Assembly: GCA_000092065.1 (NCBI GenBank)
Contig: CP000597.1
DNA length: 64,000 nucleotides
Source: Ostreococcus lucimarinus
Lineage: Eukaryota
Direction: 5' to 3' (one strand)
Made by a program: the position numbers and the translations under genes. Positions 1-6,323 of the stretch are shown here, piece by piece (within the stretch, counting starts at the first letter, position 1; each line of letters starts with the position of its first letter). The notes under the pieces were generated by a model, which ran no database searches, was not told the origin of the DNA, and was given only the letters and a program-made list of their open reading frames with translations.

Positions 1-558
1 GCGGATGTGCGCCAGGCGTCTGTTTACGGCGTCGGCGTGATGTCCGAGCACTGCGGCCAAAGCTTTAACGCTCACGTGCCGAGCGCGCTCAGCGCGCTCG
101 CGAGCGTCATTCAAGCGCCGGGCGCTCGAGACGATGAGAACATCTACGCCTTCGAGAACGCGGTCGCCGCGCTCGGGAAGATGTGTGAATTTCAGAACGC
201 CGCCTTGGACGCTAGCGTCATCTTGCCTTCGTGGTTGGCGAGCTTGCCGCTGACGGAGGACAGGGTTGAGGCGAGAAACGTGCACGCGCAACTCATGCGC
301 CTGCTCGAGAGCAACGGGCAAGCCTTGATGGGTGCCTCTTACGAGCACCTTCCCCGCGTCGTCAGTGTACTCGCGGATGTTTTACCAACCTCCGGTTTGA
401 GCGCGAAGCTCCGTCTCGTCGAGCCCGAAGTCGCGGCAAAGATGAAGGCGTTCCTCGTGCAAATGCAATCGAGCCTTCCTCAAGACAAGCTCAGCGCCGC
501 GTGGGGCATCTTGAGCGCGGAGAAACAAGCCGCGCTGCAGGCGGCACTTCAAGGTTAG
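1..558 (+). CDS. Importin-5 / karyopherin beta-3 (RanBP5)-like, C-terminal part. The gene begins upstream of the window.
   Basis: The ORF is open from the window edge to TAG at 556-558. Its C-terminal HEAT-repeat region aligns by eye with IPO5: ENAVAALGKMCEF, VILPSWLASLPLTEDRVEA and a terminal ...EKQAALQAALQG resembling IPO5 ...EQQAAIQELL. The opposite strand in this span is not protein-like. Confidence 0.55.
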   Translation, partial: ADVRQASVYGVGVMSEHCGQSFNAHVPSALSALASVIQAPGARDDENIYAFENAVAALGKMCEFQNAALDASVILPSWLASLPLTEDRVEARNVHAQLMRLLESNGQALMGASYEHLPRVVSVLADVLPTSGLSAKLRLVEPEVAAKMKAFLVQMQSSLPQDKLSAAWGILSAEKQAALQAALQG

Positions 559-694
559 GACGAAACGCTAGAAATACAACACAGAGACTTCATCAAACAC
601 GCGCGCGTCGCGTCATATATTCGTTCGTTCGTTTTAAATTAAAACCTCCTCGAGCGCGTTCGATTCGAAACGGAACGCGAAGAGACTGCGACGC

Positions 695-1099
695 TCACTT
701 CCAATGCTCTTTCACCTCTTGCACCCAGCCGTATCTTCCATCGTACTTGGACGGGTCCCAGTCCGGTAAATCACTCGCGCTTCCCGCGCCGAGATCATTC
801 AATTCGTGCGCCGTCAACAACCTCTCATCGCGCGTCGCCGCGCTCGCCCCGCACGACCCCACCTTTAAAACCGCGCCGTACCGCCCGTCCTCGAACGCCA
901 ACAGTTCGTTAAACATCCCGAGCCGTATCTTCAGCCTCGAAAACTTCGCCCCCGTCGCCAGCGCGATCGCCTTTCGCACGTCCGTCTTCGTGTCCGTCGC
1001 CTCGACGTCCACGTCGACGTACCACACCGCGAACGCCCCGAGCTTCGCCTCGCGCGCGTTTTCCACTGGAAAGTAACACGTCACGCGCGTCTTCACCAT
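695..1099 (-). CDS. Conserved hypothetical protein of about 134 aa, function unknown.
   Basis: In-frame ATG (CAT at 1097-1099) to the stop at 695. The amino-acid composition is natural: MVKTRVTCYFPVENAREAKLGAFAVWYVDVDVE...DWDPSKYDGRYGWVQEVKEHWK. The composition changes sharply to Arg-rich junk upstream of the ATG. The opposite-strand frame is low-complexity. Confidence 0.35.
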   Translation of the reverse strand: MVKTRVTCYFPVENAREAKLGAFAVWYVDVDVEATDTKTDVRKAIALATGAKFSRLKIRLGMFNELLAFEDGRYGAVLKVGSCGASAATRDERLLTAHELNDLGAGSASDLPDWDPSKYDGRYGWVQEVKEHWK

Positions 1100-1333
1100 C
1101 GCGTCTCGCGTCGCGCCGACGAAGGCGTCGCGCCGTCGTCGTCTTTCGTCGCTTTCGTTTTCGGTTCGCGTCGCGCGAGTGACGCGCGCGTTCGCGTCGC
1201 TTTCGCGTCGCGCGCGCGCGTCGACGCGTCGGCGTTTTCGTGCGTTTTTTTTCGCGTCGGCGTCGCGCGCGGTGTGATTTTCGCGACGCGATTGTCCCGC
1301 GCGTCGACCGTCGACGCCGCGTTCGCGCGCGCG

Positions 1334-3424
1334 ATGCGCGTGTTCGACGTCCCCGAGCCGCGCGCGCGTCCGCGCGACGACGTCGCACCGCCCGGACCGC
1401 CCGGACGGCGACGCGTCGCGCGCCCGACGCCGCGCGGACGCGAAAACGATGGCGAAAACGCGACGTCGAGCGACGACGACGCGACGGATGACGATTCGAC
1501 GCGCGAGAGCGACGACGCGAGCGACGAAAACGGCGGCGCGAGCGAACGACGCGCGCGGTATCGAAGCGTCGCGGGCGCGGGCGACGGGGCGCAGTGCTGC
1601 GTGGTGGGCGCGGACGGCGTCGCGCGAGGGGTGTGGCGCGCGACGCTCTTCGCGGAGGACGACGCGAGGGACGACGACGCGAGCGTCGAGGACGCGTTTC
1701 GAGCGCTGGTGGCGAGGAAAGAGCGGCCGTGGGTGGTGGTGCTCGCGCGGGGGGGGCACTTCGCGGCGAGCGCGTTCGACGCGAGGGAGATCGGGGAGGA
1801 GGGAGACGCGCGGGCGAGCGCGGCGAAGAGACGCGCGACGGCGAGTCGGTACGTCGTGCGAGCGAAAGCGGGAGGGAGGCAGGTGAGCAAGGACGGGGTG
1901 AAGAATATAAAGAGCGCGGGGAGCTCGATGCGACGGGCGAACGAGCGGGCGCTGGAGGCGGACATGCGAGAGGCGTTCGCTTCGATGAAGACTGAGTTGG
2001 AGGTGCGAGACGACGCGCGTTTTCGCGAGCGTCGCGACGACGATCCGGATGATGAAGAACTTGCTCCCGAGACGGACGGCGCGCGCGTCGTCCGAGTGGC
2101 TGCGGTGCGCTCGCGCGTGAACGCGCGCGAGAGTAGACGAAATCTGTGTTCACGCCAGAGTCGGTGGGCGGCGAAGACGAGGCAAAGTCAAATTTGTCTC
2201 GACGACGTCGCTCCGCCTTTTCGAGCACGGATGCGGGTGGAGTTATCACGCTCTCGCGCGATCGTTCGCGCGCGCGTTGCGTCGCGTGAAGGTCGTCTAT
2301 GAGCGGTTACGTTATGAGAGCTGACGGATTGATTTTTTCGGCGAGCGACCGCGATTCGCGTACTGAATTCACCGACTGACGCGCGTTTGTACTCGTCGAC
2401 CGCGGCAGAGCGCGAGTCTGATTTTTGTGAGCGTCAGTAAAGTAGACGCGAGGACGATTTTCAACGATAAGAACCCGATGCTCGATAGGAAGGATCCGCG
2501 CGTGCGGCGCGTGCCGTTTATGACTGGCCGGCCGACGTTCAACGAGACGAGACGCGTCATCGGTCGCCTCGCCACCGTAAACTTAAACGTCGTTGAAGAA
2601 GAAGAACGATTGGACGAAGACGCCGACGCGCTCGCGGGATTGGCGGATACAAAGTTTGTCATCGCGGCGAAACCGAAGCCGCCGCCAATCGAGGCACCGC
2701 CAGAGGCAGAAGTCGAAATCATCCCTGAGCCGGAATTGCACGCGGCGGCGAGAGCGGGAGATTCCGAGCGAGTGCTTCATCTCCTCATCGAAGAGAACGC
2801 CGATCCGACGGAGTCGTATAAAGGAAAGTTGCCGTACGTAGTGAGTAAGGACAGAGAGACGCGCGACGCGTTCCGCCGCGCGATGGCGCAAAAGCCAGAC
2901 GCGTGGGACTGGATCGGTCGCGCCGCGGTGCCGAGTGCGTTGACCGAAGAACTCGAAGCGAAGAAGGCCGCTAAAGAAGCGGAATACGAAGCGGCGCGGA
3001 AGGAAAAAGAGAAAGAGCGCAAGAAGGCGCAGAAGGAACGCAAGAAGAAACAATCAGCGGCGGCGGCACTCTTGGAGAAAACGGCGGCGCCCGCCTCGAG
3101 CGGTGTCGCGGAGAAGAAATCCGCGGCGTTGGTGGAGCAGGTGGACAAAGTTTCGAACGATCGCCGCGAACAAATGGTGAGTGTTTACGTCGTCATCGCT
3201 CGTTTTTCTTGATGTTTTCCTCGACGTTTTTCTCGGCGATTTTCTCACCCTCGATCGGTCGACTCATCATTGGATCACGTTTACTAACGAAACAGGCTCT
3301 CGCCGCAGAGCGACGAATGCAAGCGCAAGAAGCGGCGCGCAAAGCCAGCGTCGGCGCGCTCGGGGGCGCGCGCTTTCGCGATACGACTACGATCGGTGGT
3401 GGGCCGACTGGGCCGACGCAGTAA
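1334..3424 (+). CDS. Vms1/ANKZF1-type peptidyl-tRNA hydrolase homolog (VLRF1 domain, ankyrin repeat, coiled coil), multi-exon. Approximate exons: 1334..2002, 2409..3176 and 3296..3424.
   Basis: The VLRF1 core reads ERPWVVVLARGGHFAASAFD ... RYVVRAKAGGRQVSKDG, matching the ANKZF1 catalytic loop RYTVRAKRGTAQG with its conserved Gln. Downstream lie an ankyrin repeat (ELHAAARAGDSERVLHLLIEENADP) and a Lys/Glu-rich coiled coil. The last intron, 3177..3295, is supported by the frame. The first intron is tentative, with a GTGCGA donor at 2003 and a CAG acceptor at 2406-2408 that keep the frame. The ATG at 1334 is the first in-frame ATG; the ORF-track start at 1274 is GTG. Confidence 0.6.
3177..3295 (+). 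other. Spliceosomal intron (119 nt) in the Vms1-like gene.
   Basis: The donor is ATG|GTGAGT at 3177. A TTACTAAC branch-point consensus lies at 3281-3288. The acceptor is AACAG| at 3291-3295. The intron is T-rich, unlike the flanking GC-rich exons. Splicing joins ...REQM to ALAAERRMQAQEAARKAS... in frame and the reading ends at TAA 3422-3424. Confidence 0.75.
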
Positions 3425-3629
3425 CGCGCTCTTGCGCGAGAACGCAGAGGCGATGGCGAAGGGCGCGTTCAGTGGCATCGCGATCGCGGTCGTGCTTCAG
3501 AGCACGGCCCGGACGGCGCGTAACGGACGTGAAAAGGCACGATTAGGACGATGGCGAGATAGATAGGATGTTGTAGACAACGAAAACTGTGTAGTGTACG
3601 GGTCGGGTTGAAAAGAATCAGAGATAAAT

Positions 3630-4640
3630 TTACGGCGCGGTGCTTTCGATCGTCTTCAAGCACTCCACGACGCTCGCGCCATCGAGCATCTTTTCCGTCA
3701 ACGTGTCCCACGCGCTCTTATTCGTCTTAAGAATGCTCGCGGCTTGGAAGACGGCCCATCGCGTGAGCTCTTGCTGCGACGCGTCGGAGAGCTTCGGGTC
3801 GACTCGGTTGAGAATTCTCTGCAAATCGTACAGATCCGCGCTCTGACCCATGACTTCGTCGAACTCCATCGCTTCCGCCGCGACGCCAGACATGCTCACC
3901 ACGGCGAGCGGGAGCATCTCGCTTTCGCTCAGTTTCGCGCCTTGAAAAATTTTCCGCTCCAGCTTGGACTCCATAAAATTCACGTGCGACTGATCGATGC
4001 CGAGATCGTACGACCCCACGGGCACGCCCAGCGCGTACCCTACCAAAAAGTGCCCAGCCTCGTGTCTCGCGATCCTTCGTCGGTACTCCGGGTTCACCCT
4101 CGCCAACCGATCCGTCGCCACGCGCAGCAACCCGGGCGCCGTCGACCCCACCGCGAGCACCGCCAACGAAATCCCCCCGATCAAATACGCCCCGAACGCC
4201 CCCCAATCCCCCGGAAGCGTCGCCCCCACCACCGTGGCCAACAAGCTCGTGCTCAGCGTCACCGTGACGATGAGATTAAAGTCATTCGCGTCGCTCGGTC
4301 GCGCGATTTGTTCCGGCGCGCACTTCAGCAGCCGCTTCAGTTCATTAGGAAACACGTTTCGTCGCTGCATCGGCGCCTCGCCCGCGCTGTTCCACACTTT
4401 CACCGCGCCCGAGTCTTTCAAAGTCTTCAGCGCCGCGCGCACGTCCGTCGTCGCGCGCTCCAGCGCCTCGGCGCGCTCGCTCGGCGGCAGCGCGCGAACT
4501 TTGGATAAAACGTCATCGATGGCGTCGTACGACGCCGCGGGCGACGCGCGAGCGACGACGACGCGCGAGCGACGCGCGATGACTCGCGCGTGACGCCGCG
4601 CCGGCGCGGGGGCGCGCGCGGACGACGTCAACGTGAACAT
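3630..4640 (-). CDS. FtsH-like peptidase M41-domain protein without an AAA ATPase module, with a predicted plastid transit peptide.
   Basis: ATG (CAT 4638-4640). The N-terminus is Arg/Ala/Ser-rich (MFTLTSSARAPAPARRHARVIARRSRVVVARAS). It is followed by predicted TM helices and an HEAGHFLVGYALG zinc-binding motif of HEAGH type, as in FtsH M41. No Walker A/B motifs are present in the 336 aa. Confidence 0.5.
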   Translation of the reverse strand: MFTLTSSARAPAPARRHARVIARRSRVVVARASPAASYDAIDDVLSKVRALPPSERAEALERATTDVRAALKTLKDSGAVKVWNSAGEAPMQRRNVFPNELKRLLKCAPEQIARPSDANDFNLIVTVTLSTSLLATVVGATLPGDWGAFGAYLIGGISLAVLAVGSTAPGLLRVATDRLARVNPEYRRRIARHEAGHFLVGYALGVPVGSYDLGIDQSHVNFMESKLERKIFQGAKLSESEMLPLAVVSMSGVAAEAMEFDEVMGQSADLYDLQRILNRVDPKLSDASQQELTRWAVFQAASILKTNKSAWDTLTEKMLDGASVVECLKTIESTAP

Positions 4641-4781
4641 CGATCGGATCGGCGCGTCTCGGTGTGACGCGCGGGCTCGCGCGGCGAGCGCGAGCGAGCG
4701 CGCGAGAGATTGAATAACGATAACGATGAGATAAGAAAATCGAACGACGGCGTGCGACGGTGAACGAGCGCGACGAAGTGA

Positions 4782-6323
4782 TCACGCGGTGAAATCGACC
4801 TCGTTGGCGAGGATTTGCTCGAGGGTTTGCTTGCGACGAATGACGGCGAAACCGGCGCCGTCGGCGAGTCGCATGACTTCGGGAGCCTCGGGGAAGGAGT
4901 TGTAGTTCTTGGAACTCATGCCGGCGCAGTAGGCGCCGGACCCCTCGATGACGACGTAATCGCCGATGTTGACTTCGCCCATGCGACGCTCGGAGATGGT
5001 CTCCGGCTCGTCCGGGGCCGGGGTGAGCAAATCTCCGGATTCGCAGCAGTGCCCGACGACGACGTAATCGGCTTGCGCGGCGGGCAATTCGCCAGCCTTG
5101 CTCACCGACACCAGCGGGTGCTGAGAGCCGTACAAGCTCGGGCGTAAGACTTCGGTCATACCCATGTCGAGTTTCAAGAACGTGTGCCCTTCGGCGGTGC
5201 CGGTGACGACCTTGTCTTGCACCGAGGTGACGACGGCGCACGAGTTGGCCAACAAAAACGTACCGGGCTCGATTTCGAGCTTTAACTTACGTCCGGTCTC
5301 CTTCGCGAACGCTTCGAACGCTTCTTTCACCGGCACGCCGACGACGGCGAGATCGGTGGACTTTTCGTACGACATCCGCCCGACCTTGTAGCCGCCGCCC
5401 AGGTTGAGCGTGTCGACGCTCGGAAACTCTCGGCACAAATCCAAGGACATCCCGCTCACCTTTTGCCACACCGCCGGATCGCTTCCGCTTCCGATGTGCG
5501 TGTGCACGCGCACGACCTTCAAGTCGTACTGCTCCACGATTTCCTTCACTCGCGGCAGAGACTCGAACCAAATCCCGAACGACGAGCTCGGCCCCCCCAC
5601 GTTCGTCTTCCCCGTCCCGCCGCTGCCCAGCCCCGGGTTAAACCGCACGCCGACCTCCCCTCCCGGGAACGCCCTTCCGAATCGTTCCAACTGATCCAGC
5701 GAGCACGCGTTCACCTTCACCCCGCGTCGCACCAAATCCTCGAAAAACCTCGGCAGCTCTTGCGTCGACAGCGAGATCTCCCCCCCCTCGAATCCCGCCT
5801 TCATCGCTCGCTCGCACTCGTATCCGCTCGACGCGTCGACGTGCAGGCCAGCCTTTTTAAACGTCTTCAGGATCGCCGCGTTCGGGCTCGCCTTCATCGC
5901 GTACCGCACCGTCAATCCGTACGCGTTCGGAAACGCCCTCGCCCGCGCCGCCTGCGCGTCCAGCGTCGCGCGGTCGTACACGTACGTCGGCGTCCCGTGC
6001 GTCTCCGCCACGTCGCGCGCGTCCTCGGGCGTCAGGAACCGCAGCGTCTCCACCGCGCTCGCGCTCGAGCGCGCGCCGAGGCGCGCGCGCGGCGCCGTCG
6101 CGGTGCGCGCGCGCGTCCATCGTCCCGTCGCGCGCGTCGCGCGATCGCGTCGCGCGCGCGCCGTCGCGACGCGCGGCGCCGTCGCGGTCGCGCGCATGCC
6201 GTCTCGAGCGAGCGCTTTCGTCGTCGGCGCGCGCGTCGGCGCGTCGAGGCGTGCGGCGCGGCGACGATCGCGAAACCTCGATCGACGTCGCATCGCGACG
6301 CGCTCCGATGCGCGCGCGCGCAT
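4782..6323 (-). CDS. lysA: Diaminopimelate decarboxylase (LysA-like; PLP-dependent Orn/DAP/Arg decarboxylase fold) with a long organellar presequence.
   Basis: [22 protein letters not shown] near the mature N-terminus; [16 protein letters not shown]; [10 protein letters not shown]; [12 protein letters not shown]. The ORF starts with a true ATG (CAT 6321-6323), but the first ~90 residues are Arg/Ala/Thr-rich. Internal ATGs at 6293 and 6197 are alternative starts. Confidence 0.75.

Follow-up and report, generated by a model that had tools for sequence, protein, structure and literature searches.

Yeast Vms1 and human ANKZF1 belong to the eVLRF1 proteins, whose full layout runs from a Rei1-type C2H2 zinc finger through the VLRF1 core and three ankyrin repeats to a VTC treble clef and a VIM (Burroughs and Aravind, PMC6514570). 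The catalytic glutamine of the yeast protein, Q295, sits in a GxxQ context (PMC7026593). ANKZF1 has been reported to remove the 3' CCA and to leave a 2',3'-cyclic phosphate. In Ostreococcus tauri, Ot-CDsno131 has been called highly expressed, unusual in structure and O. tauri-specific (Bousquet et al. 2020, PMC7671301); it is listed there as an uncapped, orphan, intronic box C/D small nucleolar RNA (snoRNA) of 257 nucleotides (nt) at chr18:183050-183308, with ∼1160 transcripts per million (TPM) in mncRNA+TAP libraries and a host gene, ostta18g00980, described as 'unnamed' (PMC7671301, Table S3). Both systems meet in a 64,000-nt stretch of Ostreococcus lucimarinus DNA (contig CP000597.1, 61.7% GC; hereafter the window). 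With a probability of roughly 0.9, positions 1334..3424 on its plus strand are a single nuclear three-exon gene that encodes a 521-amino acid (aa) Vms1/ANKZF1 (eVLRF1) orthologue and whose first intron hosts a box C/D RNA.

Gene structure and splicing

A six-frame listing divides this locus into three plus-strand open reading frames (ORFs; 1274..2302, 2427..3212 and 3209..3424, in frames 2, 0 and 2), which an earlier sequence-only reading of the window had taken to be one intron-split gene for a Vms1/ANKZF1 (VLRF1) homologue. The sequence features quoted in that reading are all where it placed them, including the peptides ERPWVVVLARGGHFAASAF (aa 130-148) and RYVVRAKAGGRQVSKDG (aa 172-188, from nt 1847), both of which lie in ORF 1. 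Joining 1334-2002, 2409-3176 and 3296-3424 yields an open coding sequence of 1566 nt that ends with the stop codon TAA at 3422-3424, and a profile hidden Markov model search of the spliced product with Pfam VLRF1 (PF18826) gave 136 bits (E = 1e-39, cut-off 27), so the family assignment holds. The match is divided between profile positions 1-83 in ORF 1 and 92-143 in ORF 2, and the spliced product covers positions 1-143 of 145; the domain is whole only after removal of intron 1, and the three ORFs are one gene, as had been proposed. Alignments to known proteins are likewise gapless. The yeast Vms1 alignment runs without a gap through junction 1 (...MKTELE/SASLIFVSVSK...; phmmer, PDB sequences), and full-length homologues from Tetraselmis, Coccomyxa and other green algae, together with P0018, an uninterrupted 666-aa metagenomic protein, align without gaps over both junctions.

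The two sets of intron boundaries that had been proposed proved to be exact when related loci were compared. Some of these loci are syntenic orthologues reached through the half-proteins of metagenome pipelines, and a DNA-pattern scan added 34 to them; both introns occupy identical codon positions in ∼10 related lineages. Wherever intron 1 was readable at its two ends, the donor is one in-frame GTGCG at the homologous codon and the acceptor is a YAG immediately 5' of xAS[LR]IF[IV]SVSK, with intron lengths of 354-521 nt that fall into all three classes modulo three. In O. tauri the homologous region carries an intron annotation (PMC7671301, Table S3). The intron 2 junction is identical in every readable orthologue, with donors of the form GT[GA][AC]GT and lengths of 80-121 nt, not in frame, and in all orthologues examined TACTAAC recurs 3-8 nt ahead of the acceptor. 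At the protein level, the start codon and MR[VI][FL]D are kept in the orthologues and the sequence upstream diverges, exon 2 shares 93.9% amino-acid identity with the orthologous locus L001, and exon 3 is conserved in all orthologues.

Taken by itself, the intron 2 branch motif TTACTAAC is insignificant (one occurrence in the window versus 0.19 expected, and at least one in 17 of 100 shuffles), and its weight comes from conservation. The sequence-only reading had taken the TACTAAC intron to define an intron grammar for the locus, a claim that stands for intron 2 and fails for intron 1 and the introns of the nearby importin gene, which use GTGCG[ACT] donors and place CTRAC 18-31 nt before a YAG acceptor. 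The distance from the intron 2 branch motif to its acceptor (5-8 nt to the last intron base in every lineage) is unusually short, and conserved, when set against the 18-31 nt of these other introns.

The nearest thing to RNA-seq here is contig L039 (Ga0182067_1642709), which is transcript-like and bears the signature of a spliced transcript. It is 99.9-100% identical to genomic L018/L013 on both sides of the junction and lacks exactly the 116-nt GTAAGT...TTTACTAACGCAG at the site homologous to 3176/3296, where it reads ...GAACAAATG/GCTCGCGCC... (positions 940-942). Further support for intron 2 comes from the protein: the VIM RREQMALAAERRM (aa 475-487) straddles junction 2 and is present only in the spliced messenger RNA, and it is therefore independent evidence that this intron is removed.

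The encoded protein

Yeast Vms1 and human ANKZF1 (PDB 5WHG, 6R84-6R87) are the best matches in both sequence and fold. Among PDB sequences, phmmer found only yeast Vms1 (6r84, 6r86/6r87 and 5whg; E ∼1e-15). An AlphaFold2 model built on 40 homologues has a mean predicted local distance difference test score (pLDDT) of 76, with cores above 90. Its confident parts are the VLRF1 core (aa 83-290) and aa 331-445, the latter with pLDDT 95-98 and helices predicted at 332-339, 342-350, 365-368, 372-384 and 403-449. For this model the best four Foldseek matches in PDB are all yeast Vms1 (probability 1.00); aRF1, eRF1 and Pelota come next. The protein shares with Vms1/ANKZF1 an eRF1-like VLRF1 core, a GGHF motif and a GxxQ loop, and beyond the core it has helices of predicted ankyrin type, a long charged helix and a VIM, as they do. 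In the catalytic loop, G180-G181-R182-Q183, Q183 lies opposite the glutamine of yeast ...KQGGSQS..., and Q183, G180, G141, H142 and F143 are invariant among the 40 homologues.

The VIM (R475-R476-E-Q-M-A-L-A-A-E-R-R486-M487), which the earlier reading of the window had overlooked together with the intron 1 snoRNA, matches the consensus RRx2h3AAx2Rh (PMC5389986) exactly. It falls inside a helix that AlphaFold2 predicts at 460-501, overlaps a weak Pfam SVIP match (aa 470-493), and is kept in orthologues and homologues. By analogy with its relatives, this C-terminal helix would recruit Cdc48/p97. The rest of exon 3 after the VIM (3320-3421) encodes a Gly-rich, clade-conserved tail of the form ...GALGGxxFRDxxxIGGG...; P0018 ends similarly (...GTIGGGTGV), and the Tetraselmis and Coccomyxa proteins, which end QQQQLW, have no such tail.

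Conservation of the catalytic loop suggests that the protein cleaves peptidyl-tRNA on 60S complexes of ribosome quality control (RQC). If it acts as the yeast and human proteins do, its VLRF1 domain would enter the A site of a split 60S subunit still holding peptidyl-tRNA, the GxxQ loop would be inserted toward the peptidyl-transferase centre, Q183 would sever the nascent chain from the tRNA, and the VIM would bring in Cdc48/p97 (PMC7026593, PMC3639040).

The RNA within intron 1

Intron 1 is conserved like the exons. Its identity to L001 is 95% (87% for exon 1) and to the orthologous loci L002 and L007 66-68%; the identity of intron 2 falls to 42-52% in more distant orthologues. Within intron 1 lies a long box C/D element that starts GAUCCG-G-AUGAUGA and ends UAUGAGAG-CUGA-CGGAUU. 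The metagenome scan was made with the invariant 3' motif, and 28 of its 34 loci hold complete elements of 234-324 nt; two are cut by contig ends and have Vms1 exon 2 just downstream, and four are chance matches, having neither the C-box end nor Vms1 sequence. All true elements are flanked by exons 1 and 2 of Vms1, starting 36-86 nt past the 5' splice site and ending 75-112 nt (usually 75-80) ahead of the 3' splice site. The length differences among elements are not multiples of three, and the region is therefore non-coding.

Structure statistics were obtained from 13 distinct sequences with an RNAalifold consensus that has a hairpin and a long central helix besides the terminal stem. Standard pairs occupy 90% of cells, as compared to 78% in shuffled alignments (0 of 500 reach the observed value) and 29-47% when partners are slid, and the covariation score is 0.414 versus 0.222 (again 0 of 500), with 24 pairs altered on both sides. 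In the terminal stem, for example, GAUCCG/CGGAUC becomes GUUCCG/CGGAAC, a compensatory change of A-U to U-A. The D box is invariant in these sequences and the C box reads RUGAUG[AU]. The other short invariant blocks are GAGUGGCUG, UUCAC, AAGGYCSUC and UAUGAGAG; there is no conservation ahead of the D'-like box, and UAUGAGAG alone is invariant upstream of D. Rfam offered no credible family for the long RNA when window positions 1-6000 were searched at E<=1 and intron 1 alone at E<=10, and no long-RNA family in the whole window at gathering thresholds or in three divergent loci at E<=1.

Ot-CDsno131 is, like the RNA in the window, a long (257-262 nt) intronic box C/D RNA, and its three signature blocks (5' GAUCCGGAUGAUG, internal CUCGAGUGGCUG and 3' ...GUGAG...GCUAUGAGAGCUGACGGAUC) recur here in the same order. 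The 3' block gave BLASTN E values of 3e-4 to 1e-8 against a small element set; BLASTN misses the wider homologues because the shared blocks are only 13-40 nt long. The neighbourhood agrees as well. Ot-CDsno131 is preceded by ∼2.6 kb by Ot-CDsno130, an 80-nt U60 homologue that targets 25S G1965 and resides in an intron of ostta18g00960, which encodes an 'Armadillo-type fold' protein (PMC7671301). In the orthologous loci, a box C/D snoRNA of ∼80 nt that matches Ot-CDsno130 occupies an intron of the importin gene (L004 341-421, with the guide GGAUUCCCCUUCA conserved; also L001 ∼3185-3265, L002 ∼1925-2005 and L007 ∼465-545), a place just upstream of the window's coverage. It has a weak match to Rfam snoR60 (27.8 bits, E = 0.03), and the long RNA follows ∼2.6 kb downstream of it, the same arrangement as on O. 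tauri chromosome 18. The shared snoRNA pair places the window in synteny with that chromosome near 183 kb. The source is an Ostreococcus-like alga of the Mamiellophyceae but distinct from O. tauri: the overall identity of the long RNA is too low (∼51%), and the neighbouring diaminopimelate decarboxylase has 100% matches only among metagenomic proteins, with Pyramimonas, Cymbomonas and Tetraselmis next at 68-71%.

Judged by its blocks, order and position, then, the RNA of the window is a homologue of Ot-CDsno131. By the same comparison Ot-CDsno131 is not species-specific, as it occurs, with covarying structure, in ∼10 further lineages, and its host would be the Vms1/ANKZF1 orthologue. Outside the algae, the long intronic C/D small Cajal body-specific RNAs (scaRNAs) of animals, such as SCARNA7/U90, are comparable in having 250-350 nt, C/D ends and a large structured interior. 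They have no sequence relationship to the RNA of the window, in which no guide to small nuclear RNA (snRNA) was recognised.

Several more specific roles and structures were considered. A U3-, U13- or U14-like processing snoRNA, or a guide for acetylation in 18S helix 45 by way of the conserved UUCAC, was dropped: the complementarity of UUCAC extends over only 5-6 nt and its flanks neither pair nor covary, a comparison with ribosomal RNA (rRNA) and snRNA sequences that is weak either way. For an internal C'/D' kink-turn formed by CGUCUAUGAG with CGAGACG, the proposed C-stem is without covariation, and such a kink-turn in the long RNA is a possibility only. Conserved H or ACA boxes, which would point to an H/ACA insert of the kind found in composite scaRNAs, were not seen.

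As for its biogenesis, the C/D kink-turn, closed by the 6-bp stem, would be bound co-transcriptionally by Snu13 with Nop56, Nop58 and fibrillarin, and once the intron had been spliced and debranched, exonucleases would trim it up to the protected RNA, which would be released as a stable small nucleolar ribonucleoprotein (snoRNP), by the general route of intronic snoRNAs that PMC7671301 summarises. Why the RNA resides in a Vms1 intron invites speculation. Functional coupling, whether through a non-guide snoRNP acting on ribosomes or pre-rRNA of that pathway or through an assembly that sets the splicing rate, and with it the dosage, of Vms1, is in our judgement unlikely; if true, such long structural C/D RNAs of green algae would form a new class.

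An alternative is that the structure of intron 1 acts in cis, bringing the 5' splice site near the branch point or regulating retention of the host intron. The terminal stem and long helix would loop out 289 nt and leave ∼117 nt, near the 119 nt of intron 2, L039 carries intron 1 sequence though its intron 2 has already been removed, and no conserved guide was found; all of this would suit a cis element. The strictest conservation, however, falls on the C box, the D box and the closing stem, and in O. tauri the homologue builds up as a discrete, uncapped RNA of ∼257 nt at the abundance given above, so that a purely cis role seems quite improbable to us, even if cis and trans roles are not mutually exclusive. 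We treat the element as an intron-encoded box C/D snoRNA.

Domains missing from the clade

The sequence-only reading had credited the gene with the full Vms1 architecture, a claim that goes too far: in the hidden Markov model searches the ankyrin repeats stayed below threshold, and the C2H2 finger and the VTC domain are absent. As the Rei1-type finger is undetectable by Pfam even where it is present, a motif scan was substituted, and it found CxxC...H...H in none of six reconstructed orthologues as compared to 22 of 40 homologues. The VTC treble clef (PF18716) has no match here, is present in 10 of the 40 homologues and is also lost in S. cerevisiae (PMC6514570); no orthologue has a cysteine downstream of the VIM. 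The ankyrin-like region forms two confident helix-turn-helix pairs in the AlphaFold2 model (aa 332-384), and the aligned region of Tetraselmis homologues bears Pfam Ank matches. Unlike Vms1/ANKZF1, therefore, the protein of the window has neither finger nor VTC treble clef (the latter a trait that yeast shares), only about two sub-threshold ankyrin-like pairs, a short disordered acidic N-terminus and a clade-specific Gly-rich tail. It is a trimmed family member, consisting of the VFD motif, the VLRF1 core, approximately two ankyrin-like helix pairs, the long charged helix and the VIM.

The green-algal VLRF1 proteins (Tetraselmis P0020/P0025/P0029, Coccomyxa P0019 and the metagenomic P0018) show 38-42% identity over the alignment and are collinear with the protein of the window from the N-terminal VFD/YDLP motif to the VIM. 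Tetraselmis and most chlorophytes keep a CxxC...DWHR finger, Coccomyxa keeps its DWHR half, and that of P0018 is degenerate and without cysteines, whereas the clade of the window has deleted the finger entirely.

The sequence-only reading had suspected that the finger lies in a missed exon, and most plant, fungal and animal homologues do have one (PMC6514570). The N-terminus speaks against this: MRVFDVP (VFDVP or YDLP in homologues) is continuous with the VLRF1 core, and the block MxVFDVP, which in homologues precedes the finger, is the first codon block here. No His occurs among the 139 residues preceding GGHF, and the picture is the same in all six orthologues; a tblastn search with the fingers of Tetraselmis and Coccomyxa returned nothing at 1100-3500 in any frame, and only 235 nt separate the gene from its neighbour. 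We consider a hidden finger-encoding exon, upstream or internal, extremely unlikely; the finger is genuinely missing from the clade. It is in any case an accessory domain and not the core of the family (PMC6514570).

Coordinates and neighbouring genes

The features of the locus are collected in Table 1. The intergenic region upstream of the gene, presumed to hold a bidirectional promoter and the 5' untranslated regions, keeps the same gene order around it in all syntenic loci. On its other side, divergent from Vms1, is an ORF of 134 aa (695-1098, minus strand) that has no Pfam match and whose position and length (134 aa) are constant across the syntenic loci. Downstream, a gene for a 336-aa protein (3630-4640, minus strand) is convergent with Vms1 at a stop-to-stop distance of 205 nt; the protein has an HEAGH motif and a below-threshold match to Peptidase_M41 (21 bits versus 29.9).

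Table 1. Positions of exons, introns and RNA features of the Vms1/ANKZF1 locus in the window.
Feature	Position	Strand	Description
CG-rich intergenic region	1099..1333	.	235 nt, between the start codon at 1334 and the divergent 134-aa gene
Exon 1	1334..2002	+	aa 1-223; from ORF and translation
Exon 1 content			MRVFDVP N-terminus; disordered acidic stretch aa 15-82; first half of VLRF1 from nt 1730
GGHF motif	1751-1762	+	in exon 1
Catalytic loop RYVVRAKAGGRQ	1847-1882	+	Gln183 codon 1880-1882
Intron 1	2003..2408	+	406 nt, phase 0; GTGCGA at 2003, CAG ending 2408
Box C/D snoRNA	2042..2330	+	289 nt, within intron 1, same strand as host
Terminal stem, 6 bp	2042-2047 / 2325-2330	+	closes the C/D ends
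C box AUGAUGA	2049-2055	+	snoRNA 5' end
D'-like CCGA	2067-2070	+	snoRNA
Hairpin	2073-2078 / 2089-2094	+	snoRNA
Conserved GAGUGGCUG	2094-2102	+	snoRNA
Long central helix	2099-2151 / 2229-2287	+	snoRNA
D box CUGA	2321-2324	+	snoRNA 3' end
CTGAC branch-like motif, intron 1	2376-2380	+	29 nt before the 3' splice site
Exon 2	2409..3176	+	aa 224-479; second half of VLRF1 to nt 2588, then linker
Exon 2, later parts			ankyrin-like helix pairs 2730-2891; Lys/Glu-rich long helix 2946-3086; start of VIM 3162-3176
Intron 2	3177..3295	+	119 nt, phase 0; GTGAGT donor, AACAG acceptor
TTACTAAC branch motif, intron 2	3281-3288	+	branch A 8 nt from the last intron base
Exon 3	3296..3424	+	aa 480-521 and TAA; remainder of VIM 3296-3319

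Discussion

A number of observations weigh against the reading of this locus as one spliced eVLRF1 gene with a snoRNA in its first intron. Splicing of intron 1 rests on comparison and on the O. tauri annotation, and L039 retains the 3' 170 nt of intron 1 (positions 1-170), including the 3' 74 nt of the snoRNA; intron 1 may thus be slowly spliced, sometimes retained, or abundant in the RNA pool. Among protein database records there is no fully spliced, full-length product of the clade. The long RNA shares only ∼51% overall identity with Ot-CDsno131, the homology being anchored on the three short blocks and on synteny, and a literature search for ostta18g00980 gave no match. The alignment of the long RNA contains no conserved guide of at least 10 nt and yielded no target, and because no such guide is evident the RNA is an orphan. 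For the protein, Pfam Ank stays below its cut-off of 21.1 (14.5 bits, E = 0.047), and the lost finger is a presumed ribosome contact (PMC6514570), so that details of its function might be different.

The most direct challenge to the gene model is that 1334..2302 and 2427..3212 are separate genes, as prokaryote-style callers annotate them. Public protein records of the clade are indeed all half-length. The metagenome protein clusters P0001, P0002, P0010, P0014 and P0026 contain the gene solely as two halves; these bear the label 'hypothetical protein' or the erroneous names 'chemotaxis protein histidine kinase CheA' and 'primosomal protein N'', and some of them read through intron 2 in frame. 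ORF 1 also remains open for 100 codons beyond the intron 1 donor (2003-2302), through the snoRNA, without a stop. This read-through tail is not conserved, however; in orthologues, reading past the donor meets a stop within 8-20 codons, and the extension is therefore an accident of GC-richness and not coding. Two separate genes would moreover cut one Pfam domain at profile positions 83/92 that splicing restores and would start ORF 2 partway through a beta-sheet of the VLRF1 fold, and the region between the ORFs has indels that are not multiples of three; we give this arrangement next to no credence.

Equally hard to credit is a decaying pseudogene whose interruptions are frameshifts or insertions rather than introns: the frame does shift twice, but canonical GT...CTRAC/TACTAAC...AG signals stand at identical codons in ∼10 lineages of 60-95% protein identity, the VLRF1 core and exons 2 and 3 are conserved across lineages with invariant catalytic residues, and intron 2 is exactly gone in a relative's contig, L039.

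We thus conclude that the three-exon gene at 1334..3424 is an ordinary, previously mis-annotated orthologue of a well-known family. What the present analysis adds is a documented loss of the zinc finger, a VIM that spans a splice junction, and an intron 1 that hosts a clade-wide homologue of an abundant orphan snoRNA. For annotation, the lesson is that an intron-split eukaryotic gene has been deposited many times as two unrelated halves by prokaryote-style pipelines. For the biology of the organisms, Ostreococcus-type picoalgae retain an RQC release factor, minus the ribosome-contacting zinc finger, and the comparative alignment of the orphan RNA opens its conserved single-stranded blocks, and through them its possible targets, to investigation.

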